From assembly GCA_000165345.1 (NCBI GenBank), contig CM000432.1, forward strand, positions 320,001 through 384,000: a stretch of 64,000 nucleotides of DNA, read 5' to 3'. This document shows, piece by piece, positions 3,392-62,531 of this stretch. The stretch's first letter is position 1. Each line of letters begins with the position of its first letter. The translations under genes and the position numbers were made by a program. The notes below the pieces were generated by a model. That model was not told the origin of the DNA. It saw only the letters and a list, made by a program, of their open reading frames with translations, and ran no database searches.

Positions 3392-5185
3392 TTATGGTAT
3401 AATATCAACATTTTCTAGTATATCACTCAAAGTTGCTTTTGATATATATTTATCATATTTTTCTTCAATCATTGAATTACTATCACTTATTAAATGGTTA
3501 TGATTAAATTTATTATTATCTTTTACTTCAAATAATAATTGATACTTTTCATCCATTTTTTTGTTGATAATAGTTTTAAAATAAGTTTGATTCTCACTTA
3601 TAAAATTAATGTTTGACATTATTTGTTCATTATTTTTTATTTGGTTTGAATTTATATGTTTTTTTTTTTTGGTTGTTCTTGCTTCACATTCTTTAATAAT
3701 ATCGTCCATTTTTTCATGACAATGATTTTTGATCATATTACCAAAAGTTAAACCTAAAGCACCACCAATTGCTGCACCAAAACTCACTCCAATAGGACCT
3801 AAAATTAATCCAGCAGCACCTCCACAAACTAGCCCAGCAGTAGAACCATGAAATGGCCACCAATTAGCTTTTGATTTACTTCCTTTTGCAACAGATGATG
3901 CACCTTGTGCTGTGTTAATTTGAGCTAAAGCCGATTGTTCTTCTAGATAATCTATTTCTCCAGTACTTTCAATAATTAATTTATAAATTTCAGTTTGAAC
4001 TTCTCGTATTTTAATCATAGAGTGCTTAATATTTGTAACCTTGTTTTTACATTCCATAAGAGATTCAATATCAATATTTTCCATAACGATAGAAGCTCTT
4101 CGTGATTGATTTATCAAACCAAATTGAATTTCTGAAAATTGGCAACTATTACTATTACTATGGTTAACTTCTAATATTGATTTGTCCGAATTAAAATCAT
4201 GTATTGATGATGGGCATACAATCACTTCTGGCAATAAAATATAATTGACATTATTACTTAAATTATCACTGATTTCTTCATCGTAATCAATTTCATCAAC
4301 ATTCGATTCGTTTTCATCAATAGATAATTTATAAGAATTTTGATTTTGAGAATAATGATGATCAACATTAGATTTTTTTTCAAAATTTGTATTAGTTAAT
4401 TTATTATCATTTAATATTTGATCATTGTCTTGATTATCAGCATAATAAATATCATTTTCTAGAATAGATGTAACATTATTGTTAATATTAAAATACTCAA
4501 TTTCAATAAAATTATCATTTTTTGTATTCCAAATACTCATAATAAATGCTTGATTGAATAAATTATTTGCTATTTTACTTAACATTTTAAAATCACTAAT
4601 AAATTTTTCATGTTTTACACAATTTACTGTACATACATGATATTCTTCGATATTATTTTTATTTTGAGAAATAATATTATCCATTTCTATTTCATTAAAT
4701 TCTTGTATATCATTTGAAATACCGGTGCTCTTTGGGAAATTATCATTCCAATAAATAAACCAGTTGTAACTTAACGAATATTTACTCAAAACTATACAAT
4801 CTTCACCTAAAAGCTTGCATTTCTCTTCTAATATTCCACCTACTCTTAATCCAACTGATATGCATACTCTAACCAAATCTATTATATTTTTCTTTATATT
4901 AATAGCACAATTTTCTGCTTGATATTCTTCCAAACTATTTTTTAGCTTCACTAATAAAGAAGATAAATCAATCATTAATTCTTCTATTAATTCTTCCTGA
5001 TTTAAATTTTTCACAATTTTATTTAATGAACAATCTTCAAATTTTAACTTTCTTTCATTTTTAGGTAAACTAATTATTTCACTACTATTTAATAATTCTT
5101 TTTTACCATATCTCATTAAATTTGAGTCCAAATTATTATTTTTACTGTTTTTTTCTCCATAAATGTTAGTAATTGTCTTTTCCAT
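3392..5185 (-). CDS. Hypothetical membrane protein (597 aa) with a glycine-zipper transmembrane hairpin (GLVCGGAAGLILGPIGVSFGAAIGGALGLTFG)
   Basis: Long intact ORF; Asn-rich low complexity; a single Gly-zipper hydrophobic segment near the C-terminus. It resembles the Gly-rich TM segment of the neighbouring DUF726 gene but has no hydrolase domain. Confidence 0.6.
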   Translation of the reverse strand: MEKTITNIYGEKNSKNNNLDSNLMRYGKKELLNSSEIISLPKNERKLKFEDCSLNKIVKNLNQEELIEELMIDLSSLLVKLKNSLEEYQAENCAINIKKNIIDLVRVCISVGLRVGGILEEKCKLLGEDCIVLSKYSLSYNWFIYWNDNFPKSTGISNDIQEFNEIEMDNIISQNKNNIEEYHVCTVNCVKHEKFISDFKMLSKIANNLFNQAFIMSIWNTKNDNFIEIEYFNINNNVTSILENDIYYADNQDNDQILNDNKLTNTNFEKKSNVDHHYSQNQNSYKLSIDENESNVDEIDYDEEISDNLSNNVNYILLPEVIVCPSSIHDFNSDKSILEVNHSNSNSCQFSEIQFGLINQSRRASIVMENIDIESLMECKNKVTNIKHSMIKIREVQTEIYKLIIESTGEIDYLEEQSALAQINTAQGASSVAKGSKSKANWWPFHGSTAGLVCGGAAGLILGPIGVSFGAAIGGALGLTFGNMIKNHCHEKMDDIIKECEARTTKKKKHINSNQIKNNEQIMSNINFISENQTYFKTIINKKMDEKYQLLFEVKDNNKFNHNHLISDSNSMIEEKYDKYISKATLSDILENVDIIP

Positions 5186-5487
5186 TTAATTTGTTGGTAA
5201 TTGATGATTATTCCTTTTTTTTAATTCCTTATTAAACAAAAAAATTATTATTTTTTAAAATTTTATTATTAACACTACATTGAACTGTTTTTTTTTTTTT
5301 TTATATAATCTTATTTAATTTACGAAATCTTATATTTAATTCAAATTATACTAAAAAATCAATATTTATTCGAAAAAAAAATTAAATTATTTCTGTGCCT
5401 GTATATATTATTTTATTTCCTTATAAATATATTTTATTGTTAATGTGGACAATAATTACGTGTCAATTTTGACACAAATAAATTATG

Positions 5488-5535
5488 TACCGGAGTAATT
5501 GCATGCATATGCATGTAATTACTGCGCATTGCTAC
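5488..5535. promoter_or_regulatory. Near-palindromic element GTACCGG..GTAATTGCATGCATATGCATGTAATTAC..GCGCATTGC upstream of gene 3392..5185
   Basis: A 28-nt near-perfect palindrome holding two GCATGCA cores, flanked by GTACCGG and TGCGCA, about 300 nt upstream of the ATG at 5185. Confidence 0.45.
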
Positions 5536-11034: not shown

Positions 11035-11045
11035 TATTAATTAAT

Positions 11046-13469
<2,424 letters not shown>

Positions 13470-17179: not shown

Positions 17180-17442
17180 TCCCAATATAAAAAATATTAG
17201 TAATAAAATCTGATTGAAAATCCTTTTAATTATATTCTACTACTAGTAATATTATATACTCGAAGAGAAATTAATTAATTAGAAATTAATTTAATATATT
17301 TATATATTATTATTAAACTTTTTTGATCTTAAAATTCCTTTATGATGTGAAAAAGAGAGAAATCCTACTAGAAATACTTTCTCTTTTAACTTGAACTCCA
17401 CCTACACTTCTATCCCAAATAATAATATCATTTTCAAGTGAA

Positions 17443-19503
<2,061 letters not shown>

Positions 19504-19869
19504 TATTATTATTATTATTATTATTGTTAATTTTCTTCTAGTAATTCAAATTCATTATTGCTCGAATATTTACTTAATTACTTCAATTAGAAGTAAAATA
19601 TCCTCTCTTAACTTAAAGTTCTTTAATCAATAGTATTTAATAATATTCCAATCTCTTTTTTTTGAATAAAAAAACTCTTATTCTTTCTATTAATCACTGT
19701 TTTAAATTTTTATTATTTTTTACAGAATATTTACATAAATTTTTTTTTTTAACTGCTTAATGCACAAATGCAACATCCTATTCCCCCCACACATGCAAAC
19801 CGCTGAACACCGGTATTAAAGTCCTGCATGTTCTATTTTTTTAAATTCACACGTAATATATAACTACAT

Positions 19870-19960
<91 letters not shown>

Positions 19961-20097: not shown

Positions 20098-23000
20098 TTA
20101 TAACTTTTTTATTGTTAAGGTTCCCTTATGTAAATACCAAAACTTTTTAATTCCATTCAAATTTCTAATATCATGAGCAACAATAAATGTAGTTGAATGG
20201 CTAAAATACTTAAAAATAATATTTGTAATCAAAGTCGATTTCTTGTTTGAAGTAGAGTTCATATTCACATTATCATTACAATAAATTACCGGTGGCTCAT
20301 CAATCAGTAAAATACTTATTTCATTTCTCTTTAAGAAGTAATGAGTAAATAATAACAACCTCTGTATTTGCATTGGTAAATTTAATTCACTAATCTTCCT
20401 GTTCAAATAATTATTCATTATGGTAAGTCTGTCATTTCCCATTAAAAGAGGTGCACTTTCATCTGGTTTTTTCTCTCCCACAAAAGAATTTTTGAAATTT
20501 ATCTTATGGTTAAAATTATTCATGGTTTCTCTTTCTAATAAATAATTAGTTACACCACATATGTTCAATGCAGAAATTATGTTATCATTTGAATAATTTT
20601 CAAATGGGTCAACAGATTCTCTTATTGTTGTATTCTCATTAAAAAATACCTCAACAGGAAGCATTGCAACATGTCTCATCATATTATAATCTTCCAAAAA
20701 TATCTTCATTATTTCTTCATCCACATTACTCCTACATAACTTGCAGTTTACTAAGTGGTTGCTGTTTAGTAAATTATTATTGGAAGAAATTGGATGGCTT
20801 ATTTTTCCTTTATGTTTCAAAGATTTTGCTATTAAAAATAGTAATGAAGTTTTTCCAGACCCTGATCGTCCAACTATTCCTATTATCTCTCCTTTATTTG
20901 CTATAGCATTTATATTATTTAAACAACAAACTTGTTTTACCAATGTTCCTCTAACTTCTGAACGATCTAATTGAGATTTCTCATTCTCCGTTGATAAATT
21001 TGAATGATAACCATATGCTGACTCTAATATTATATTATTATTTTGGTTCATTTTTATATTGTTATCATATTTCACATTATTGTTTTCTAATAAATCATTC
21101 TTCATTTTGTATTCATCTTTAATAAGCTCCAAATACTTTCTCATCCTTTCCACAGAAACTAATTCCTTTTCTAGTCGCATTAAATACCTCACAACCTCGT
21201 CAATTCTGCTTAGAGAACCAAAAGCAGTAGCAATCATTAAAGCTATTAATATTTTTGAACTTCCATTTGAAAAATATGATGAAAATACATTGAAAAATGT
21301 TAATGGAATAATAATTCCAACTTGAAGTCTAATCTTTAGCCAAGCTTCCAGAGAAGATTGAATATATATTGGTCTCATAATCTCTTGAAGCTGGCCATAT
21401 CCATTTTCTAAATAAAATCTGTCCAACTTCTGAGGTCTTATACATTCTTTTCCATCGCATATATTTCTAACTGTATCTACTAATAATGAAATCTCTGAAA
21501 TATAAGTATTATGTAATAATCTGCATGAATGTATAAAATACCTAAATATATATTTATATATTATATAGAAAAGTATTGAGAATAATATAGTCTGTATTAT
21601 TGGATATTCTGAAGCTAATATAGATAAATATATTGTTGCCAATACTCTATTAACTGCTGTAACAAATTGTCCAACCCTTTTAGTTGTACAATAATCAATT
21701 GTGAGTTGGTCCAAGCTGATTCTATTCAATATAAATGATACTGGTATATATCTGATACAAGAAGAAAGTTTTGATCCAATATATCCTAATAAAAATGAAT
21801 TATGCAAATTATTCGCAGCTCTTAATCCAACGTAAACTTCTAGAATACCGCTTGCAATGACTGATAGTATTGCCAAAAAAATACAAACAAAATATGTGAA
21901 ATAAAGAATATCAACACCTATAATTCCTCCAATTTTACTTCCTGTTTCACTTACTAGTGATAAATTACCTAATAGTACTTTTTCTCCAAATAATAAAATG
22001 AATTGATGAAGCAATAGTAATACCAAATAAAGTATCATTTCTAATGATGATTCTTGAATCTTTTCAGTAATTGACCAATTTTTTGGATATTTAAATCTAT
22101 TTGCAGCTTTCAATATATAGAAAAATAAAGTAGAGTATGAGTTTTCTGAAGAGCCACCTAAAACTTCTTTTTTTGGAAGAAGCTCAATAAATTCTTCAGT
22201 TTTTTCCTCACAACATTTTAAACTATTTAATCCCATATCCACCCTATTTTCATACTTTATATGAGTTTGGCTATCAGCAATTTCACTTTCATTACCGTTA
22301 GAATTACTACTTAAATTTAAGACTTCATCCTCCTCAGTAGAAAGTTCCCACAAATCTTTAGAAAAATCAGTATCAAAGCAGAAATCATTAATAATAGAAT
22401 GTATACTGGAAGATGTATTAACACTTGTAGTTGATTTTGGTGATTCAATATTGACACCAAAACTCCTATTTTCACCATATTTGAATGGTATTACGTGTAT
22501 TATAGATTCCAGAATATTATTAGGAAGGAAATTAAGCATTTGAGTATCCAAAATCATTATAGAAAATACATGTTTCAGTAATCCATTTTCATGATTAAAT
22601 AGTTTCTCAAGTATTGAACAACAAACTGGAGGATCCAAACTACTAAATATTGAATCTAATATCAAAATTGGAACACCATCTTGAAGATTGTTGTTAGATT
22701 CATCATTTTTAGATTCAATTCCATATAATGCTCTTGAAAGAGAAAGGCGAACCTTTTGGCCTCTACTGAATTGAACTTGTGAGAATATAGTACTTCTGGC
22801 CATATCATAAGTTGAAATACCCCAAGATACAAAGTCATTCCTTAGCTCACAAATATCTATAACTCTCTCCCATGAATCCTGGTCATAATCTCTTCCATTC
22901 AAAATAATATCAGCTAGACTCATACCATCTGTAATCCACGAATCCAAGGGAACATAACATACTGGGTTAGAAATGTCTGCCAATATATTCGATATTTCTC

Positions 23001-24570
23001 TTTTCTTTTGCAATTTACTCCTATTATTACTATTTTCAATTGTTTGATCATTTACTCCTAAAATATCCCTTCTTTCTAACTCAATCCTAATTCCATCCCT
23101 ACCATTAACTCCAAAAACCACCCTCCTACATAAATCAGTTAACAAATGATTATAAGATATATCATTACACGAAAATATTACTGGTACTCCATACTTCATC
23201 TCTATTTTTTTGGGAATGTTGGCGCCAAAAAGCATAGAATCTGCATGCAAAATAATATTTTCATTTTTGTCAATAACTTCAAAAGAAGTCGAAGTTTTGG
23301 CGGGAAATTTGCTTCTTGTAATTTGCATTAGTTTTGCAAGTCTATTAAGAGCATTATTTCCTTCTGAGATGTAATATATAAGATAACATAATTCCTGAAG
23401 TGGGGTGTAAAAGGATGGGACAAGAATTGCAGAGTCAATGATCATTTCAATACTTTTGTAAGTATCAAAGTGGTTATACCATACATAAATAGAAATAATT
23501 CCATAACAGAAATATCCCATAGACCTGGATATAATTTCTTCAATAGTAAAAAAGTATTTTCTGAAAGATCCAAAAAGCATTTCGTTTCGTCTGGATTCAG
23601 ATAAAAGTTTGTGAAAAGTGGAAGTAAAATGGTCTTGAGTAAGATTTAAAGACCTTGAATTTTCAATAATATTAGTAGTTTCAGCAATTCTCTTTTCCCT
23701 ATGAGCAATAAATGGCTTTTTGAAGAGAGTACTAATAAATAAAGATATTATAGCTCCAGCAAATAAAGTTGATAAGGAAAAGATTAATAATTTCATGGAA
23801 TGATCATCAAAAGTTTTGATAGCAATTGCAAAAGTGGAAGCAATTTTTATTGGAAAGATGAATATTCTAATTGAATACGAGATAGCATTTTCTGAAAAAT
23901 CAGAGTCAACTGTAATCACATTTTGATATCTCGAAATCTTCGACTTTGGAAGTTGTTCAGAATCTTCATTTTGATATAAACAAAAATTAGAATCACAATT
24001 TGAAAGTCTTAAAAGTGAAACTCCATTAATAGCTCCAATTACTCTTGCTCTAACTCTCATAATATAATACTTGAGATGAGTGTCAGATAAAAGAAAAGTA
24101 GCTTTTAGAATAAAAATGAAAATACTCGCAACCAGACCAGTTTCTTTGCTTCCAGCTGTTCTAGTACCTATTAAAGCTCCTATAAAGAGAATTCCCTTGT
24201 ATTTAACAAAAGCATCCAAAGCAATCAATAGAAATGTCAATATAACATACCTACAATAATCTTCTTTAAATGCTTTTAATATACTTAAATACATATCAAG
24301 TCCTGACCAGTTCTTATCACCAAGCTGATTTTCCTTTTCTTTTATTACTTTCTCCAAAGTTATTGTATCTTCCTTCACTGAATGAATATTATATCCAAAT
24401 GGGATAGCTTTAGATTTAAGAGTAGTTAAATTACATTTATAATTACTATTATCTTTGTTTTTTTCCTGATCATTTTGATGATTCTTAAATAAATAGTTAA
24501 CAGTTTTGTCAATTTTATTTAGAAATAGATTGTCAATAAAACTTAATATCGAGCTGAATTTATTTGACAT
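20098..24570 (-). CDS. ABC transporter, ABCC(MRP)-like full transporter (TMD-NBD-TMD-NBD), 1490 aa; copy 1 of a tandem triplet
   Basis: NBD2 has Walker A GRSGSGKTSLL, Walker B ILLIDEPP and H-loop IVAHD. NBD1 has signature FSRGQKVRLSLSRALY and Walker B ILILDSIFSSLD but no P-loop. Two polytopic TM domains. Confidence 0.9.
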   Translation of the reverse strand: MSNKFSSILSFIDNLFLNKIDKTVNYLFKNHQNDQEKNKDNSNYKCNLTTLKSKAIPFGYNIHSVKEDTITLEKVIKEKENQLGDKNWSGLDMYLSILKAFKEDYCRYVILTFLLIALDAFVKYKGILFIGALIGTRTAGSKETGLVASIFIFILKATFLLSDTHLKYYIMRVRARVIGAINGVSLLRLSNCDSNFCLYQNEDSEQLPKSKISRYQNVITVDSDFSENAISYSIRIFIFPIKIASTFAIAIKTFDDHSMKLLIFSLSTLFAGAIISLFISTLFKKPFIAHREKRIAETTNIIENSRSLNLTQDHFTSTFHKLLSESRRNEMLFGSFRKYFFTIEEIISRSMGYFCYGIISIYVWYNHFDTYKSIEMIIDSAILVPSFYTPLQELCYLIYYISEGNNALNRLAKLMQITRSKFPAKTSTSFEVIDKNENIILHADSMLFGANIPKKIEMKYGVPVIFSCNDISYNHLLTDLCRRVVFGVNGRDGIRIELERRDILGVNDQTIENSNNRSKLQKKREISNILADISNPVCYVPLDSWITDGMSLADIILNGRDYDQDSWERVIDICELRNDFVSWGISTYDMARSTIFSQVQFSRGQKVRLSLSRALYGIESKNDESNNNLQDGVPILILDSIFSSLDPPVCCSILEKLFNHENGLLKHVFSIMILDTQMLNFLPNNILESIIHVIPFKYGENRSFGVNIESPKSTTSVNTSSSIHSIINDFCFDTDFSKDLWELSTEEDEVLNLSSNSNGNESEIADSQTHIKYENRVDMGLNSLKCCEEKTEEFIELLPKKEVLGGSSENSYSTLFFYILKAANRFKYPKNWSITEKIQESSLEMILYLVLLLLHQFILLFGEKVLLGNLSLVSETGSKIGGIIGVDILYFTYFVCIFLAILSVIASGILEVYVGLRAANNLHNSFLLGYIGSKLSSCIRYIPVSFILNRISLDQLTIDYCTTKRVGQFVTAVNRVLATIYLSILASEYPIIQTILFSILFYIIYKYIFRYFIHSCRLLHNTYISEISLLVDTVRNICDGKECIRPQKLDRFYLENGYGQLQEIMRPIYIQSSLEAWLKIRLQVGIIIPLTFFNVFSSYFSNGSSKILIALMIATAFGSLSRIDEVVRYLMRLEKELVSVERMRKYLELIKDEYKMKNDLLENNNVKYDNNIKMNQNNNIILESAYGYHSNLSTENEKSQLDRSEVRGTLVKQVCCLNNINAIANKGEIIGIVGRSGSGKTSLLFLIAKSLKHKGKISHPISSNNNLLNSNHLVNCKLCRSNVDEEIMKIFLEDYNMMRHVAMLPVEVFFNENTTIRESVDPFENYSNDNIISALNICGVTNYLLERETMNNFNHKINFKNSFVGEKKPDESAPLLMGNDRLTIMNNYLNRKISELNLPMQIQRLLLFTHYFLKRNEISILLIDEPPVIYCNDNVNMNSTSNKKSTLITNIIFKYFSHSTTFIVAHDIRNLNGIKKFWYLHKGTLTIKKL

Positions 24571-24927: not shown

Positions 24928-24992
24928 CACGAGACGTGCCTTTTTGGCGCCAACTGCATTGATGCACATTTGTCAGAATTGCATACCGGCAT
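24928..24992. promoter_or_regulatory. Promoter cluster upstream of ABC copy 1: TTTTTGGCGCCAA (24941..24953), TGCATTGATGCA, GCATACCGGCATG
   Basis: E2F-like palindrome plus an ATACCGG core about 370 nt upstream of the ATG at 24570. Confidence 0.5.
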
Positions 24993-25112: not shown

Positions 25113-28100
25113 TTAGCCCATATTTGTTTTGACAAAGCTGAATAGTTCGGAATTAGTAAATGAATTGTGATCAATTTGTGTGTCCCTAACTATCTTTCCA
25201 CTACTCAAAACAAGAACACGGTTTACATATTGAAGACTTCGGATATCATGTGATACTATGAATGTAATGCAATGCTTAAAGTATTGGTTAATGACCGATG
25301 AAAGAATACATCCAGATCTATTGGTATTTCCCAAATTTTCATTAAAATTTTCTTTATCTGTCCTTTTATTTAAAAGCTTACGACTTCCCATCTGATTTCT
25401 TAAAACTACTGGAGGTTCATCAACTAGTAAAATCCTTAATTTTTCTCTTTTCAGGAAGAAGTTTACAAAAAGTAGCATTCTCATCTGGAGAATACCAAAT
25501 CCAGTCTCATCTAATTTAGTTTCAAGAAATCTTTGAATTGTATTATTTTCATTTAACAAAGCACTTTCCTGATCACATTCTGTTAATTCGGATTCAAGAT
25601 TTAAGCTATCACTTCTTTCCAAGTATGATCCAAATCCACAAATGTTCAAAGCTGATTTAATATCATCTAATTCGTATTCATTGAGAGGATCAATCATATC
25701 TCGAATATTACCATTCTTGGGGAAGTAAATCTCTAAAGGTAAAAAAGCTATGTGACTTAGATCTTCCTGGAACTTAATTACTGATTTAATGATTTCCTGA
25801 TCAAAATCTTCAAATTGGAATCCAATTCTTTCTAACTTGTCTAATATTTTCTCATTATTTTTTTCCAAACCTGTAACTGTCATTCTTCCATTTGCACACA
25901 ACAATATATTTGAAAGCACATCCAATAAGGTTGTTTTTCCAGAACCTGTTCTTCCTACTATTCCAACAATTTCTCCTGCACTAAACTTTGCTGTAACTCC
26001 ACAAATACTTGTAACATGAGTCACTTTTGTACCTATTAAATAAGAATTATCAAAATTGGAGTTTCCTTGAGATTCTAATCGAGAATGTTGCGCTTTAATA
26101 TTCTCAAGTTCAATTTTAACTTGTCCTTTACTTTTCACATTCTGTTGTACCCCTATTCCACATTTTAAATATTCTGTACCAGCCTCTCTAGATGCAGCCA
26201 AATATAGTCTAGATCTTTCTACTGAGACAAGTTCTGTTTCTAGTTTTGTCCAGTAACCAACGAGAATAGACAATAAAGGAGCTAATCCCGTTGCTGTAGC
26301 TATAGCTAATGCTAGAATAGATCTAGTTGATGATTCTTGACCACTTGAAATATAAGGTAAAACAATGTTAATGAGTGTAATAGGAATTGTCAATAAAATC
26401 TTTATTCTCATCTTAAACCAAGCATCCAAACATATTTGAGCAAATCTAGGCTTCAATACTGAGTTAATTCTATCCACACTAATTTTAAAGAAGAATTCTT
26501 TGACTTGGGTAGAAGTTAGACATTTCTTTCCTTTACCAATAGTTTGAATTGTATCAACAAGAGGGGAATATTCAGAAATATAACATGATCTTAAACTTCT
26601 ACACCCATTAATAAAGTATCGTATAAAGAAGTAATATATTGAAGACCCAATAAGGCCAATTATAATTAAGGTAAGTAATGAATTAGCAGATCCAAAAATC
26701 AAAGGAATTACAGAAATGATGACTGAATTTAAAATAATAATAACAAATCGAATTCTTCTGGTAATACAATAGTCAATATGTAGTTGGTCATTAGTGAGTC
26801 TGTTTAATATAAAGCTCAAAGGGAACCATCTTAAAATAGAATTTGAAGTTGCTCCCAAATAACCAAGTAATAATGAATTATGGAAATATCTTGCAGCTCT
26901 AAAACCAATTCTGATTTCTAATAGAAGAGCAAAACAAATAGAAACCATTGAAATAATTAAAGCTGTATTATAGAAGGAGAACCAAAAAGAAAGTACATTA
27001 TGCCCAAAGAATGAAGGTATTCCAAACAAGATTGCTTTAAATCTCCCTAAAGTGCTTGAATTAAAGAAAACAACAGAATTCCAATTTAATTGAATACTCT
27101 CTTCTCTGAGAATGATTAAAAGTAAGGATTCTCCAAGCTTTACCATAATTGGTGGAAGGATCAATAAAAATATCATTAAGTAGGATTCAATAGAAGAACC
27201 TGAAAAATCTTTTTTATTAGAATAGATGTCTTGAATGAATCTTTTAGATCCAGAAATAAACATATAAAAGTAATTAGTAGGATAATAATAACTGAATTTG
27301 TTCTTTTTTATATCAATTCTACTAGTTGTCTCCATTCTTTCGTTACTTGGAATTTTGTACTTTTGAAGATATTCTCGGGAATCAGCTTCAACTTGGTTAG
27401 ATCTTTCCTTAATACTTGAATCAAAAGACACCAATTCCTCAAATGAATTTTGAATACAATTAACAGTTACTTCCTCAGTACTTGTAATCACTTTGTTATT
27501 CATATTAATTACCTTATAAGAAAAACCATTATTACTCGAAGCTTGTTTTACAGATTCCAATATTGGAGGTTCTATGACTATTATTGATATACAATCAGAT
27601 AATAAACCATTTTTAGAGAAAAGTCTCTCAATTACAATCTTACAAACAAATGGATCTAAGGAATTAAGCACACAATCAATTAAAAATACTCTTGGCTTCT
27701 TTTCATTTGATGATAAGCAAGAATAAATCGCTCTTGCAATAGATAACCTCACCTTTTGTCCTGCACTAAATTGCTTATCCGTAACAACGAGACGTTTTGC
27801 ATCATCGAAAGATTTTACACCCCAATTTAAGAAGTCCAACTCTAGGTCACATTGATATATTACTTGTTGCCATAATTTCTCTTGATATTCACCTCCACAA
27901 AGAATCAGATCTGATAATGGAAGACCACTTAAAATCCATATCAACTGTGGAACATATCCAACTAAAATCTTTGAAGAGATTTCACAAACATTTTCAACTT
28001 GACCATTTTCTAACTTAATCGAAAATAGCCCGCCGGCGCCAACATCATTCATTTGGCCATTTTGGCATGCAGTGGAATTGAAGAGAAACCCAGCAATTCC

Positions 28101-29984: not shown

Positions 29985-30050
29985 GCACTGGCTATACCGG
30001 TTATATATTTTTAATTTATACCGTTGCCACGTCATTTATTGACATGTGGA
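29985..30050. promoter_or_regulatory. Promoter elements upstream of ABC copy 2: GCTATACCGGTTAT; CCACGTCAtttatTGACATGTGG
   Basis: ATACCGGT core and a CACGTCA/TGACATG inverted pair about 470 nt upstream of the ATG at 29522. Confidence 0.4.
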
Positions 30051-30292
30051 CAAATATTTAAAAAAAAAAATTGGTTGAAATCATGATTAATAATAAATAA
30101 ATAAATATTAAAATAAGGTATATTTACAAAAAAAAATATTTTTGAAATTTTCTTACTACATGGTTTTTTATTTTTGTGAAAAGGGAGTTACTAAATGTAA
30201 CTTTATCTGCTAATAGTTAATATACAAACTGTAATAAATTATAATTAGTATGAAAAGAAAAATACATATAGAAAATGTAATAGAGCTAGTTA

Positions 30293-37791: not shown

Positions 37792-38040
37792 TTTGGCGCT
37801 AATTACACGTAAATTATTTCTTGTTAGAGTAAATGAGAAAGAAAATTAACAAAGAGAAGAATGTTGATCATTGAATGAAAAAAAAATTTTGTAGAAATTG
37901 AATAGTTTGTGTATATTAGTTTTGACAAAACTAAATGATGATTTTTTTTCCTTTTTTTAAATTTAGTAATAAACACTATTTAAAAATTGTTCGTGAATTT
38001 TTAATTTACATGCATAAAACTGTGGGGAATTGGCGGGAAT
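37792..38040. promoter_or_regulatory. Promoter of gene 38133: TTTGGCGC (37792..37799), ACATGCATAAAAC, TGGCGGGAATTTT (38031..38043)
   Basis: E2F-like boxes 90 to 340 nt upstream of the ATG. Confidence 0.45.
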
Positions 38041-38132: not shown

Positions 38133-38837
38133 ATGAATAAGGTATCAGATTATAGTACAAAAGAAGAATCTCAGGACTTAACAAAAGTGAAGAAGGAAAA
38201 ATCAACTAAATCGGGTATATTAAAGCATGTTTTATTAGGATCTATAATTGCGGTAATCTTTGGATGTGTATCTAAATATTACTTTTTTGATAAGATAGTT
38301 TTAACAGAAGAGAATTTACCAAATATATCATCAATTAACCAAAATGAAGTGAATATTGGAAATAAAGAAAAAACCTTAACAAAAGGAACTTTTGGAGAAG
38401 AAGAATATATGGAGTTGCTTCAAGATGATAAAACTATTACTTTAGAACAGATTACACAAGATGATTCTTTAGAAGATAATGATGAATTAATGTTTAATCA
38501 TGAAGATGAAGCTTTATATGATCAAATAGAGGACGATTATCGTGATGATGAAGCTGAAGATGAGAGCGAAGATGGAGAAAATGAGTCGCAAATAGATTCT
38601 GAAACTTTAAAAAGAATGTTAAAAGAAGATGTACAATTGGAACTAGATGAAGGTTTTGCTGCAAAAGATTTTGAAAATGAAGAGAGTATTGATGTTATTG
38701 ATGATGCAGAAATTGATGAGTATGAACATGAAACTGATGATGACATAACTGACAACAACTGGTCAGATGATGAAACTGAACTAAAAAAAATGGAGAATCA
38801 AAAAGAACAAGAACAGAAACAAGAAAAACAACAATAA
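38133..38837 (+). CDS. Hypothetical single-pass membrane protein with a highly acidic (D/E-rich) C-terminal domain, 234 aa
   Basis: One hydrophobic helix (VLLGSIIAVIFGCV) followed by a long acidic region; no recognisable catalytic motif. Confidence 0.55.
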   Translation: MNKVSDYSTKEESQDLTKVKKEKSTKSGILKHVLLGSIIAVIFGCVSKYYFFDKIVLTEENLPNISSINQNEVNIGNKEKTLTKGTFGEEEYMELLQDDKTITLEQITQDDSLEDNDELMFNHEDEALYDQIEDDYRDDEAEDESEDGENESQIDSETLKRMLKEDVQLELDEGFAAKDFENEESIDVIDDAEIDEYEHETDDDITDNNWSDDETELKKMENQKEQEQKQEKQQ

Positions 38838-38950
38838 GCTCAACATTATTCACTTCAACATAAGTAGAATTAATATAATTTATTTTATTAGACTAAATTT
38901 ATGACCACTTTTCTTATTTCTTTCTTTTTTCTGCTAATTCTCTAAATTTC

Positions 38951-38993
38951 TATACCGGTATTAACATAATAAATGCATGTTTTGCCGCCATAC
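38951..38993. promoter_or_regulatory. Promoter-type motif pair (TATACCGGTATTAAC ... TTTGCCGCCATAC) located in a 3'-3' convergent gap
   Basis: It has the same motif classes as the bona fide promoter gaps, but no annotated gene start is nearby. It lies 35 to 75 nt beyond the stop of the methyltransferase gene. Confidence 0.35.
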
Positions 38994-39026
38994 GTGTCAA
39001 AGAAAAAAAGTAAATCAATGGAATAT

Positions 39027-40340
<1,314 letters not shown>

Positions 40341-40870: not shown

Positions 40871-40896
40871 TTCGGTACCATTTTTGGCGCCAAAAC
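40871..40896. promoter_or_regulatory. Divergent promoter box TTCGGTACCATTTTTGGCGCCAAAAC
   Basis: Perfect palindrome TTTTGGCGCCAAAA between the gene starts at 40340 (-) and 40966 (+). Confidence 0.55.
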
Positions 40897-42105: not shown

Positions 42106-42366
42106 GCAAATTCTTTTTTATAGTTTAGGCGGGAAATTCATTTAAACTAATATTAATGATTATTACTAATTATTATTAACGTTCTATTATTATTTATTAT
42201 AAACAAAACCTAAATAAGTTTTATTTGTACAAAATATTTGTGTCATCAGTTAATGTGTAGAATTTTCAAGTCTTTATGTGTGTTAAACACTATCTTAATG
42301 CACAACTTTTATTGATAATGATTAACTTGAGGCTTTGAATATATTGTTTAATATTAAGAGTGAATA

Positions 42367-43224: not shown

Positions 43225-43410
43225 ATTACAACTTGTAATGTACTTGTTACTTTGTTTACAAACAAGACACTATTTCAGGAAACTATTGAAAGATAGATAA
43301 ATGAGAAAACACTACACAACTATTTTACTATTATTATTATTACCATTTTTCTTTTTTTTCCAAGTATTAAATACCCAAACTGAAATTATTCATTATTAAT
43401 TCATTCCACA

Positions 43411-43480
43411 CGTTGGCGCCTAAACTATTTTTCACTGCATCACTGCAATACCGGTAATGTGGGGGGGTACGCGCCAGATA
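43411..43480. promoter_or_regulatory. Promoter cluster upstream of gene 44148: GTTGGCGCCTAAAC, GCAATACCGGTAATG, GTACGCGCCAGA
   Basis: Two E2F-like boxes flank an ATACCGGTA palindrome. Confidence 0.5.
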
Positions 43481-46844: not shown

Positions 46845-46900
46845 GCAATATAATAATTAAGTAAAAGATTTAACCAATAATAACGATTAGACTAAATATA

Positions 46901-51490: not shown

Positions 51491-51633
51491 ATTTGCATGC
51501 GCTTGTCCACATTGAAATAAAATGTCAACTGCAAGCATTGCCGGTATCAACTTCAATAAATGCAAGTATTTTTTTAGGAAAAAATATAACAAAGGCGCCA
51601 AATAAATAATAAAATGACGTGGCGAGCGCCAAG
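51491..51633. promoter_or_regulatory. BMS1 promoter: TGCATGCGC, TTGCCGGTATC, AAAGGCGCCAAATAAA (51591..51606), TGGCGAGCGCCAAG (51620..51633)
   Basis: E2F-like boxes 125 to 165 nt upstream of the ATG at 51759. Confidence 0.55.
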
Positions 51634-55098: not shown

Positions 55099-55150
55099 TA
55101 AGAATATAAATGAGATCAATTTAATCTATTTAGTAATCTTTAATTATTTA

Positions 55151-57583: not shown

Positions 57584-57745
57584 GAAGAATGAATATTCTC
57601 ATATATTTATCTTAAGTTTTATAACATATTGATATATTTATTTTTTCTTAAAGAAAAAAAAATAATGAAGAAGTTATCGTACTAATTTTTAAACAAAATT
57701 TAGGATATTTCCAATGATAACTAATTTTCTTAAAAAAGTATTAAT

Positions 57746-58504: not shown

Positions 58505-58778
58505 TTTAATTAATTTCTTGATAATTTATTAAGATGTTTAATTCACTTCACTATTACATAATATTACTTTACTATAAAAAGATAATAAAAGAAAGGAAAA
58601 AGAATAAATAAACATTTATATTATTTGTTTTACCTCCCCCTCAAATCCTCGACTTGTTAAAAAAAATATATATATATATATATATATATACAATTTTTTT
58701 TTTTTAAATTAATACCATCTACTATCTCAAATATAATAAACTATTGCATTATTGACATAAATAATCTGATAAAGTCAG

Positions 58779-58804
58779 ATGCCCGCGCGCGGCACAGCGC
58801 ATGT
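58779..58804. promoter_or_regulatory. GC-rich palindromic element GATGCCCGCGCGCGGCACAGCGCATG
   Basis: CCCGCGCGCGG palindrome 3 nt downstream of the JPT-like stop codon and about 275 nt upstream of the cis-prenyltransferase ATG (58504). Confidence 0.4.
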
Positions 58805-58806
58805 AT

Positions 58807-59371
58807 TTAATATAAAGAAAATGTTGATTTTCCACCTGGAGGATTATGTACTTTAACATTTGTTTTAAAAGAATTACCAGTAGAAGTTTTACCTAAAGAA
58901 TTATTATCAACATTTTTTACTTCACTGGTTTCAGAGTTATTTTGATTTACATTAAAACTATCATTTTCAATATTAAGATTATTATTTGTTGCATGTAAAT
59001 TTGTTATTTGTTGTTTATTAGTATTTGTTTCATTGTTATTAGTATTAGAGGAATTGCATGTATCTGAAAAGGCGCCTAAATTTGTGATTATTTAAATAAT
59101 GTTGAAATAAAATAATTTGTTTAAAACTTACTGAATCCAAGTCCAAGGGAAGATGAGCCACCAGGTGGATGGTGGATTCTTGTACTTGGTTTACTTCTAA
59201 AGAATTGATTATCTTGAGCGTCTTTTTATTATTATAAAGTTTTATTTTTCAAAAGTAATATTTTATAGAAAATATAAATATATTAATTTATTAATTTCAG
59301 TAAAGTTTATTCGTAATTTAAAAATCAGTTAGATTAATACCAAATAATTGTAATATATTGAACTAACCCAT
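58807..59371 (-). CDS. HN1/Jupiter (JPT)-like small microtubule-associated protein; 3 exons join(complement: 59368..59371, 59132..59221, 58807..59075), about 120 aa; not in the ORF track
   Basis: Exon 1 on the minus strand is ATGG, followed by a GTTAGT donor (intron 59222..59367). Exon 2 encodes DAQDNQFFRSKPSTRIHHPPGGSSSLGLGF (compare JPT1 ..RVLRPPGGGSNFSLGF). GTAAGT donor at 59126..59131 on the minus strand. Exon 3 is an open frame ending ..KVHNPPGGKSTFSLY* (compare JPT1 C-terminus RNPPGGKSSLVLG). The total is 363 nt, in frame. The exon 3 acceptor is either 59075 or 59063; both keep the frame. Confidence 0.6.
59076..59131 (-). other. intron 2 of JPT-like gene (GTAAGT...TTTAG); an alternative acceptor lies 12 nt downstream (TTTTCAG ending at 59064)
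   Basis: Canonical GTAAGT donor; two in-frame AG acceptors are available. Confidence 0.55.
59222..59367 (-). other. intron 1 of JPT-like gene immediately after ATG+1 (GTTAGT...AAAAAG)
   Basis: There is no in-frame ATG inside exon 2. ATGG at 59368..59371 has an A at -3 and is followed by a GT donor, and phase 1 joins correctly to ..AC GCT CAA. Confidence 0.5.
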
Positions 59372-59591
59372 TATTTATTTGTTTTAGTTAGATTCTTTTT
59401 TTTTTTTTTTAATATTATCAACTTTAAATCACTTTTTGAATGAAATTCTAAGAATCTGTTTGAGTATTATTAATAATACAAAAAATAAAGAAAATTAAAT
59501 TATATAAAATGATGATTGAAGAAACAATTATATTTTACCCCTTACCTATTTAATTTATTAATATTTAAAATAAATCTCAATAATATATATA

Positions 59592-59623
<32 letters not shown>

Positions 59624-59704
59624 AATTAATTCCCATGTAATTTTTCCCTCCACTAGAATTTATTTAAAAATTAATATATTCAATTTTATTACTATCCCCA
59701 CGCA

Positions 59705-59723
59705 GTGGCGCCAAAAAACCCGC
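59705..59723. promoter_or_regulatory. E2F-like box GTGGCGCCAAAAAACCCGC in the divergent promoter (JPT-like gene / BRX1)
   Basis: Lies between the gene starts at 59371 (-) and 60394 (+). Confidence 0.5.
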
Positions 59724-60393
59724 TTTAGTTTGAATATTTATAATTATATATATATAAATATATTATACTATTAAAAGACAAATAATGATAAGTAACATCA
59801 ATAACTGCCAAAAATTGATAATTGAAAAATATTTACTAATATAGTAAAAATATTGATAATAGTAGGAAATACGTATATAGATATTATTATTAATATTTAT
59901 TTAAAAAAAAATTAATATTAAATAACTTTGACAGACGAGTTATTATCTGTGTATGTCAAAACACTATAAGAATATTTGTTAAAAAAAAAAAAGAATTATA
60001 TTAATGTACTAATCTAAGATTTTACTAGACTTTTTTTTTAAAAAAAGGAAATAAACAACAGTATTCAAGGTCAAGGGTTTTTTTTTTTTTTTTACTTTTA
60101 AAGAGATTAAGGAAGGTATTTGTTTTTATGTAAGTAATATACTGTAGATATATACTTTTGAATGCAACAGGTTAAAAAGATTTAAAGGTGAAAAAATAAG
60201 ATTTCAAATTTTATACAAGGTAAATAAAGACAAGTTATACTTACATATATAAATGTATATGTACGTATAATTGCAACTATAATCATATTTTCACGTGAAT
60301 TTGGTCAAATAATAATCTTTAAGATAATTAATATTGCAAATATTAAATATTAACAATTTAATAAAAAGTAATACAATAATTTATTAGTAAGGT

Positions 60394-61455: not shown

Positions 61456-62531
61456 ATATATCAAATAGAGTATGAAATGGAAGAATAATCACTAATATTT
61501 AGTGTATTTAAATCACTTGAGGATGATTTTTCTTCTTTTTTTTTTTCTCTCAAGTACCAGTATAATATACTGAAGATATTATTATTGTTATTATTAATTT
61601 ACATTGATAATCAAAGATAATTAATAACTAATATGGAAGATTATTGGAATTATGAAAAATAGTTGTATTAAAATGATTGTTATTATTATCATTATTTTGC
61701 TAATTATTATCAAATTTTATAATAAATAAAGAATTAAATGTGTATTAACCGAAAGAATCTTTAATACATTAAATTAATAATTTAAAAATTTAATAGGTAT
61801 AAATATATGAATATAACATGGAAATAACAAAGCAAAACAAAGGAAAATCAAACAAAATAACAGAAAGAAATGAAAAATCGTATCCAGGCTATCAATGAGT
61901 CGCAATGTAGCAGACATACACGACTAACTTTTTAAGTTGGTTGTTTATTAGAATATTTATTCTAATATATAAACTATAGGGAAAGTCCCCATGTGAGAGT
62001 AAGAATTCTCTATATGGCTTTAGTTATATAAGAATATACTTACTAATCTAGAGGATCATCATTAATTTGGAGTATCTTTATTTATTTAGATTCTTTAATG
62101 TGAGGTACCTTTCTTATCTATCCTCTTTATTGGATGGATAAAGATAGTGATACTGATATTATAGTGAGAGATTTCTCTTACTATGGAATCTTATATAATT
62201 GATACTGGCAGTCTCATTATTATTGAATGAGTGTAAAATGTGATCGTTAAGTTAATAGCGACTGGTATCTTTTTAAGTAGGATACAACAGAATGGGGCTT
62301 ACACTTGATTTGCTTGGTAATTTTACTTTGATATCCCAATGTTACTATTTTCTTTTTTTTTTTTCTCCTCCCTCTTGTTCTACCTTTATGTAAGTTTAAA
62401 TAGTAGTAATAAATAGTAGATATTAAAGTAATTAAAGATAGAATTTGGAATATTAAAAAGAAAGAGAAATGAAAGTATATATTATAATATAATGGACAAA
62501 ATATACAAATTATATTAATATACAAGTTAAA

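Follow-up and report, generated by a model that had tools for sequence, protein, structure and literature searches.

The locus and its features

The DNA analysed here (the window, 64,000 nucleotides over its whole length) belongs to Cryptosporidium parvum chromosome 4 and is AT-rich, with about 20-35% G+C and long, intron-poor open reading frames (ORFs). Two of its genes, cgd4_1410 on the plus strand and cgd4_1420 on the minus strand, converge tail to tail on a gap of 189 nt (38838-39026) in which no gene start is annotated, and the same locus is also present on contig CP029783.1 (about 358.79-358.98 kb). The first of them encodes a 234-aa hypothetical protein with a transmembrane segment and an acidic tail. 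Both gene numbers were extrapolated from the tag of a neighbouring gene; the TAP42 protein of the window is identical to the C. parvum Iowa II entry, and its C. hominis orthologue is tagged CHM_4g1430. Our literature search returned no paper in which cgd4_1410 or cgd4_1420 is mentioned. The features of the gap and of its flanks are as follows.

38133..38837, plus strand: cgd4_1410, an ORF with a product identical to C. parvum Iowa II EAK87611.1
38879..38889, minus strand: two overlapping AATAAA poly(A)-signal candidates (38889, 38884) for the cgd4_1420 mRNA
38910..38932, plus strand: T-rich tract, left flank of the module (read from the sequence)
38952-38961, no strand assigned: ATACCGGTAT, a perfect 10-nt palindrome with the core TACCGG (sequence scan)
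38968..38973, plus strand: AATAAA poly(A)-signal candidate for cgd4_1410, inside the module
38971..38981, no strand assigned: AAATGCATGTT, ApiAP2_1-type site with the core TGCATG at 38974-38979 (by motif resemblance)
38981..38992, plus strand: TTTGCCGCCATA, E2F/DP1-type box, reading TATGGCGGCAAA on the minus strand (Motif 3 match)
38992..38998, minus strand: GACACGT, ACGT-core box (ACGT at 38992-38995), directly beside the E2F box (from the sequence)
38999..39014, plus strand: A-rich tract, right flank of the module, ending in AGTAAA (39009-39014; from the sequence)
39009-39014, plus strand: AGTAAA, second poly(A)-signal candidate for cgd4_1410
39027..40340, minus strand: cgd4_1420, N2227-like / carnosine N-methyltransferase (PF07942), by ORF and family match

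Four motifs, namely the TACCGGTA palindrome, TGCATG, an E2F-like box and ACGT, are packed into a module that spans about 45 nt and lies 32-75 nt past the stop of cgd4_1420 and 115-160 nt past the stop of cgd4_1410. The first-pass annotation of this DNA had reported two of them, the palindrome and the E2F-like box, as promoter-class motifs at a place where no gene start is annotated, and the motif matches bear this out. ATACCGGTAT is indeed found at 38952-38961, starting 115 nt past the cgd4_1410 stop (38837), and TTTGCCGCCA at 38981-38990; the pair occupies the stretch 37-75 nt beyond the end of the methyltransferase ORF (39027), with the E2F-like box 37 nt from that stop, and these distances agree with those given in the first-pass annotation. 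TGCATG (38974-38979) and ACGT (38992-38995), which are within the same 45 nt or so, had been overlooked.

The published E2F-like motifs of C. parvum are Motif 3 (DTTGSCGCCH) and Motif 4 (TTTGGCGGGAAV) of Oberstaller et al. 2013 (PMC3734150), and TTTGCCGCCA is an exact fit to Motif 3. The earlier naming of the box as E2F-like is therefore justified, although the core here is GCCGCC and is neither GGCGCC nor GGCGGG. This rarer core is the sole case among the 14 TTSSCGCCWWW sites of the window; boxes with a GGCGGC core are also present in ordinary promoter gaps of a further sequence, L011 (18818, 20079).

The E2F/DP1-type and ApiAP2_1-type motifs of the module are at most 20 nt apart. The latter, AAATGCATGTT, resembles scored instances of Motif2 (ANTTGCATGYA) of Li et al. 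2021, for example AAATGCATGTG and ATTTGCATGTT. A published ApiAP2_1 site, TGCATGCA, is bound by cgd2_3490 (PMC3734150), and the module is similar to it in having the TGCATG core but differs in that the palindrome is incomplete in C. parvum, where the site reads ATGCATGT, with the TGCATG core only, and has 6 of the 8 palindrome positions of ApiAP2_1 (BGCATGCAH).

Recurrence of the motifs in the window

The pattern TTSSCGCCWWW, to which the gap box TTTGCCGCCA belongs, has 17 matches in the window against 0.08 expected, and ATACCGGTAT with no more than one mismatch has 10 against 0.82. When 6-mers were surveyed without prior bias in the 18.6 kb of intergenic DNA, TACCGG was counted 10 times (0.83 expected) and occurred to be the 10th most over-represented intergenic 6-mer, preceded by E2F-type words, one simple AT repeat and a G-box-like word. 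At five sites of the window an E2F box is found 8-55 nt from TACCGG, so that TACCGG is a frequent partner of E2F boxes, and the pair of ATACCGGTAT and E2F box is a recurrent promoter-type composite.

A composite ACGT-N(20-50)-ACCGG has six copies in the window (5458, 19810, 24934, 29997, 38955, 43410) versus 0.17 expected, all of them intergenic, and a seventh copy with a wider spacing is found at 51541-51620. E2F boxes, TGCATG(CA) and GTCCACAT accompany these copies, and both Cp_lnc_256 and the site 43408-43420 again have ACACGT adjacent to TGGCG. With the upstream gene as reference, four of the seven copies begin with ACGT and three with ACCGG, and such a variable order of the parts fits an orientation-independent binding at the level of DNA rather than an RNA signal.

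According to the first-pass annotation, GGCGCC and GGCGGG boxes and the ATACCGG core occur elsewhere in the window only in gaps that contain a gene start. This is right for the intergenic sites, but ORFs carry the same words: GGCGCC at 23221, 28035, 31205 and 31764, GGCGGG at 23299 and 28029, and ATACCGG at 4719 and, in five copies, within a coding tandem repeat (11704-11794). Its further statement, that the other convergent gaps are free of all three, agrees with our scan of 11035-11045, 17180-17442, 46845-46900, 55099-55150, 57584-57745 and 61456-62531, and the absence of the module from these gaps means that 3'-3' gaps do not in general carry it. Proximity of an E2F box to a stop codon is in itself ordinary, as in tandem gaps such boxes stand 22-190 nt past the upstream stop (42128, 3258, 24946, 43415); unusual here is only that the gap has no gene start at all.

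Two apparent regularities were considered and not retained. Seven of the eight intergenic TACCGG sites of the window are in gaps containing a gene 3' end, tandem or convergent, yet the idea that TACCGG avoids divergent promoters was rejected as unproven, because one site (35622) is in a divergent gap, because in C. canis and C. felis TACCGG is present in the divergent TAP42<>MT promoter, 14 nt from its E2F box, because paralogous ABC genes precede three of the tandem-gap sites, and because an extra 10 kb of sequence (L011) is without TACCGG. An orientation rule for asymmetric E2F boxes, with which three tandem-gap cases of the window agree, was also abandoned, the strands in the table of Li et al. 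being mixed.

Conservation of the module

The orthologous locus was compared in nine other species. Four of them, C. hominis, C. meleagridis, chipmunk genotype I and C. ubiquitum, carry the module block at the corresponding position, where its form on the methyltransferase strand is ACACGT(A/G)TGGCGGCAA ... CATGCA ... TACCGG(T/C)AT. The palindrome ATACCGGTAT is kept in C. hominis, C. meleagridis, chipmunk genotype I and C. canis; C. ubiquitum has the variant TACCGGCAT and, in addition, an identical ACACGTATGGCGGCAA. The full GCATGCA is present in C. meleagridis and C. canis. Both the E2F box and the ACGT-core box are kept from C. parvum to C. ubiquitum, their forms in C. felis being GGCGGGAA and GACGT. 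Conservation is partial in C. canis, which keeps ATACCGGTAT and TGCATGCA, has gained two ATGTGGA sites and has lost the E2F box, and in C. felis, which keeps GACGTATGGCGGGAA with the canonical E2F core. In C. bovis, C. xiaoi and C. serpentis none of the module was found at the orthologous locus.

Over the whole gap the identity among C. parvum, C. hominis and C. meleagridis is about 90% or higher, which makes them too alike overall to add much on conservation. In C. ubiquitum, 35 of 46 module positions are identical to those of C. parvum, about the level of the adjacent coding tails, versus 64 of 115 positions elsewhere in the gap; the corresponding values for chipmunk genotype I are 37 of 46 and 55 of 127. 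As a calibrator, the accepted E2F box of the TAP42<>MT promoter covers the same set of species as the gap box (C. parvum to C. felis), and one E2F box upstream of cgd4_1410 is conserved less deeply. Across the species single motifs turn over and the spacing varies while the cluster stays, which is the behaviour of binding-site clusters.

The first-pass annotation had named conservation of the motif pair at the orthologous position as a check on its reading. The pair is kept there in related species, and this supports a functional element. Judging from these alignments, selection across the intestinal Cryptosporidium clade appears to be the best explanation for the persistence of the module.

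Search for RNA genes, coding sequences and transcripts

No known RNA family, fold signal or conserved ORF was found for the gap. Rfam gave no match at gathering score in the whole window, and when E values up to 10 were admitted for 38700-39200 the best one was about 1, with scores far below gathering; ARAGORN found no tRNA. Folding of 38900-39026 in comparison with shuffled sequences gave z of +0.78 for the plus strand and -1.14 for the minus strand, that is, no fold signal. A small ncRNA, which the first-pass annotation had considered, is thus unsupported in its structured form. Only one ORF of more than 22 aa has its start within the gap (38973-39215, 80 aa), and it was rejected as a hidden coding gene, since a 1-nt indel cuts it to 13 aa in C. 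hominis and to 11 aa in C. meleagridis. A scan for bacterial-type promoters and terminators gave nothing above shuffled controls and is not relevant to a eukaryote, and a metagenome scan for ACACGTRTGGCGGYAAA gave 120 chance matches in unrelated, mostly GC-rich bacterial contigs, none of them Cryptosporidium-like.

The gap itself and probes of 18-20 nt from the flanking genes, taken in antisense orientation, are absent from the searched part of the catalogue of 396 lncRNAs. [quoted passage not shown] The route through gene identifiers of Li et al. was given up: CPATCC_0016260/70 were found only in the mRNA cluster sheet, and the sequences of Cp_lnc_290 (CPATCC_0016285) and Cp_lnc_256 are neither in the window nor in L011, from which it follows that the 7-digit CPATCC identifiers do not correspond to the GenBank tags CPATCC_001626/7.

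Relation to known E2F-marked promoters

E2F is the dominant motif in C. parvum open chromatin as determined by ATAC-seq, where 984 peaks were called and 888 of them classed as upstream-regulatory, and AP2 motifs were not enriched in open chromatin of sporozoites (10.1101/2025.01.17.633476). The gap box is similar to C. parvum E2F/DP1 promoter boxes in that it fits the consensus, is AT-flanked and intergenic, and is conserved to an equal depth. Unlike the published boxes, which were defined upstream of protein-coding genes, it has no gene start on either side.

By analogy, the nearest precedent for the module is provided by the putative antisense-lncRNA promoters of Li et al. There are 363 antisense lncRNAs in C. 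parvum, with coverage skewed towards the sense mRNA's 3' end, and the top two motifs upstream of lncRNAs are E2F/DP1 and ApiAP2_1, with no fixed spacing to the start site; for 309 of the 363 antisense genes a neighbouring mRNA gene lies head-to-head, which suggests shared bidirectional promoters (PMC7840661). The module shares with this promoter class an E2F/DP1 motif, a motif of ApiAP2_1 type and a position at the 3' end of a coding gene, though the locus, unlike the 309, would belong to the minority that is not head-to-head. The similarity extends to individual sequences. The 11-mer TTGCCGCCATA of the gap box is itself a scored Motif1 (E2F/DP1) instance upstream of Cp_lnc_92, and sequences of the ATACCGGC type are listed upstream of Cp_lnc_132 and Cp_lnc_347 (PMC7840661). 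A near-identical module, GACACGTGTGGCGGTAAAAGCATGCA...GTACCGGTAT, is situated inside the lincRNA Cp_lnc_256, elsewhere in the genome, and GTCCACAT, which accompanies the composite in the window, is Motif5 of the lncRNA study (PMC7840661). Taking together its sequence, position and conservation, the gap module is probably a member of the known E2F-marked promoter modules of C. parvum.

The palindrome core has another standing. The published set of 25 motifs from upstream of mRNA genes (PMC3734150) does not include TACCGG, and from the absence of TACCGG(T)A there it would be logical to consider it a candidate binding site for a further factor. Our literature search found no Cryptosporidium paper on an ACCGG motif, and the text of the ApiAP2 binding-array paper contains no ACCGG, ACGT or GTCCAC specificity. 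Motif4 of Li et al. was examined as a possible earlier report of ATACCGG and set aside, as it owes most of its signal to a 15-nt tandem repeat upstream of Cp_lnc_184, and only two of the listed instances have ATACCGG outside a repeat.

Interpretation

We suggest that the conserved module is probably a real regulatory element. More specifically, we propose that 38952-38998 may be a promoter-type cluster of transcription factor sites that would start an antisense or non-coding transcript at the 3' ends of the two genes, a reading that we hold to be the most likely one, with a confidence that is about evenly balanced. E2F/DP1 and partner factors would hold the convergent gap open, and the module would start an unannotated, probably non-coding transcript running antisense into cgd4_1410 or cgd4_1420, which in its turn could modulate the sense mRNAs through transcriptional interference or through overlapping RNA. 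Neither the module nor the strands of E2F boxes gave a directional cue for such a transcript.

The candidate poly(A) signals complicate this picture. The C. parvum poly(A) signal is A(A/G)TAAA (10.1101/2025.01.17.633476), and the two AATAAA candidates for the cgd4_1420 mRNA are 138-143 nt past the methyltransferase stop; for cgd4_1410, the AATAAA at 38968 is conserved in the closest species only. Provided that the candidates are used, their positions imply that both convergent mRNAs traverse the module, and the cgd4_1420 mRNA probably reads through it. A module inside a transcribed 3' UTR would be an awkward site of initiation and would also suit a function at the RNA level or in termination.

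It may be asked, accordingly to this arrangement of the transcripts, whether the same factors keep the gap open and terminate or block polymerases as a boundary or 3' nucleosome-free element, without any stable transcript. Such a function looks unlikely to us, although several observations agree with it: the module occupies a region that both mRNAs would traverse before reaching their first poly(A) signals, a T-tract (38910-38932), which may be the flank of a nucleosome-depleted region, borders it on the left and an A-tract on the right, and gaps with a gene 3' end hold seven of the eight intergenic TACCGG sites. The element would then resemble the roadblock factors at yeast gene ends. Budding yeast has 3' nucleosome-depleted regions with antisense initiation, and Reb1 (site TTACCCG), one of its general regulatory factors, acts in roadblock termination; the likeness would consist in genome compactness, poly(dA:dT) flanks and putative factor sites in convergent gaps. 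This is a different organism with different factors, however, and the resemblance of TACCGG to the Reb1 site is loose and a lead only. A boundary function is further disfavoured by the six other convergent gaps of the window, which are without the module, by TACCGG in divergent promoters (35622, and TAP42<>MT of C. canis and C. felis), by the three tandem-gap sites behind paralogous ABC genes, which may not be independent, and by the ordinary promoter type of all four motifs.

Still less probable, in our opinion, is a distal enhancer-like site that would act over a short distance on the promoter of cgd4_1410 (about 0.9 kb away) or of the methyltransferase gene (about 1.4 kb) and would not start transcription itself. 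The genome is compact, both promoters have motif classes in common with the module (E2F boxes at 37792, 38032 and 40883-40894), and the module is conserved as deeply as the promoter boxes of the neighbouring genes, but the other E2F boxes of the window are upstream of genes or inside ORFs, and we know of no precedent for a downstream enhancer in Cryptosporidium.

We regard as improbable, and place lower again, a 3' UTR element that would act in the RNA of either or both mRNAs on stability, localisation or the choice of poly(A) site. Palindromes would read identically in both transcripts, and the poly(A) candidates, one of which (AATAAA) is inside the module, put the block in both 3' UTRs. On the other hand, the fold scores (+0.78 and -1.14) are inconspicuous, each of the two orders of the parts relative to the upstream gene is represented among the other six sites, the parts belong to known DNA-binding motifs, their spacing varies between species as it does in binding-site clusters, and the internal AATAAA is not kept beyond the closest species. 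That the module has no function, being a chance co-occurrence or a decaying relic conserved through short divergence, has very little probability: the three closest species, at about 90% or more identity across the gap, carry little information, and the module has disappeared from C. bovis, C. xiaoi and C. serpentis, with only parts of it left in C. canis and C. felis, but a perfect 16-mer in C. ubiquitum against a background of 56% (rough p about 0.02), a 12-mer in C. felis against about 33% (rough p below 0.001) and four over-represented motifs in about 45 nt, far above expectation, speak against it.

Besides the promoter-type cluster for an antisense or non-coding transcript, a wider proposal can be made, which we consider possible though doubtful. 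The combination of ACGT, E2F box, TGCATG and TACCGGTA, often with GTCCACAT nearby, may represent an undescribed class of Cryptosporidium regulatory modules built around a putative TACCGG-binding factor, and the stand-alone promoter or boundary at this locus may control cgd4_1410 and the methyltransferase gene via antisense transcription. What is modestly new here is the locus, the stand-alone position in a convergent gap, and TACCGG(T)A, together with ACGT, as a recurrent conserved partner of E2F. Since E2F-marked antisense transcripts over gene 3' ends have already been described, the advance is an incremental one.

Little is understood of how Cryptosporidium regulates its genes, and the dominant promoter factor appears to be E2F/DP1. 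As far as the searched part of the published lncRNA catalogue goes, it appears to have missed this locus, and tail-to-tail gaps may well be a weak spot of the read-through filter. A conserved E2F-type module without a nearby gene start marks a concrete locus for antisense or 3'-end transcription in this parasite.

Motif occurrences in the window

Among intergenic 6-mers of the window, the word TACCGG ranks tenth in over-representation, with 10 occurrences against 0.83 expected, and it does not figure in the published set of 25 upstream motifs of C. parvum mRNA genes. An E2F box usually lies 8-55 nt from it, both in the intergenic DNA of the window and in the divergent promoter gaps between the TAP42 and methyltransferase genes at the orthologous loci of C. 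canis and C. felis. We suggest TACCGG as a candidate binding site of an unassigned factor.

Raw counts of the palindrome motif are inflated by a 21-nt coding tandem repeat at 11701-11800, within the ORF 11046-13469 of a bromodomain protein, where GTACCGGTAT occurs four times and ACACCGGTAT once; the palindrome is identical to that of the convergent gap. Inside the ORF of an ABC transporter (20098-24570, minus strand), three motifs form a promoter-like cluster at 23219-23306 that spans less than 90 nt, a possible promoter of internal or antisense type, and E2F-type boxes are found in ORFs paralogous to it:

23219, TTGGCGCCAAA, in the ABC-transporter ORF
23242, TGCATGCA, in the ABC-transporter ORF
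23296-23306, TTTGGCGGGAA, in the ABC-transporter ORF
28029-28040, E2F-type box CCCGCCGGCGCC, in a paralogous ORF
31203 and 31764, E2F-type boxes, in paralogous ORFs

Two ORF-free gaps are unusually long, 58505-60393 (1889 nt) and the nominally convergent 61456-62531 (1076 nt), and either could conceal an unannotated gene, exon or non-coding RNA; the former holds the following motifs:

58784, CGCGCGCG
59071 and 59707, E2F boxes

Data used for comparison

At the orthologous locus of Cryptosporidium chipmunk genotype I (L004, 4400-4525) the contig breaks off just past the module, in extended runs of G and of A that are probably an assembly artefact, so that the far side of the gap yields unreliable identity values in this genotype. 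The 7-digit CPATCC gene identifiers in the supplement of the lncRNA catalogue of Li et al. 2021 (PMC7840661) are not the GenBank tags CPATCC_001626-8 with a zero added, and cross-referencing the two by identifier is unsafe; its entry Cp_lnc_290 (CPATCC_0016285) was not found in the window. Methyltransferase orthologues of close species vary from 431 to 447 aa, and we suspect that this is partly due to a poly-Asn run, encoded in the C. parvum ORF by an (ATT)n microsatellite at 39893-39935.

Promoter boxes behind upstream genes

Besides its copy in the convergent gap, the composite module has six more in the window, combining an ACGT box, ACCGG, E2F and/or TGCATGCA and/or GTCCACAT:

5443-5507, tandem gap
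19810-19875, tandem gap
24934-24992, tandem gap
29994-30052, tandem gap
43408-43475, tandem gap
51505-51625, tandem gap

All six occupy tandem gaps, 85-370 nt from the upstream stop and with the downstream ATG 270-740 nt beyond; half of them (3/6) follow the three tandem ABC-transporter paralogues. The E2F box TTCCCGCCTAA (42125-42135), kept from C. parvum through C. bovis and C. xiaoi, lies only about 20 nt past the TAP42 stop codon, with a NELF-A-like gene about 240 nt downstream; its position shows that promoter boxes abutting the 3' end of a neighbour are normal in the C. parvum genome.
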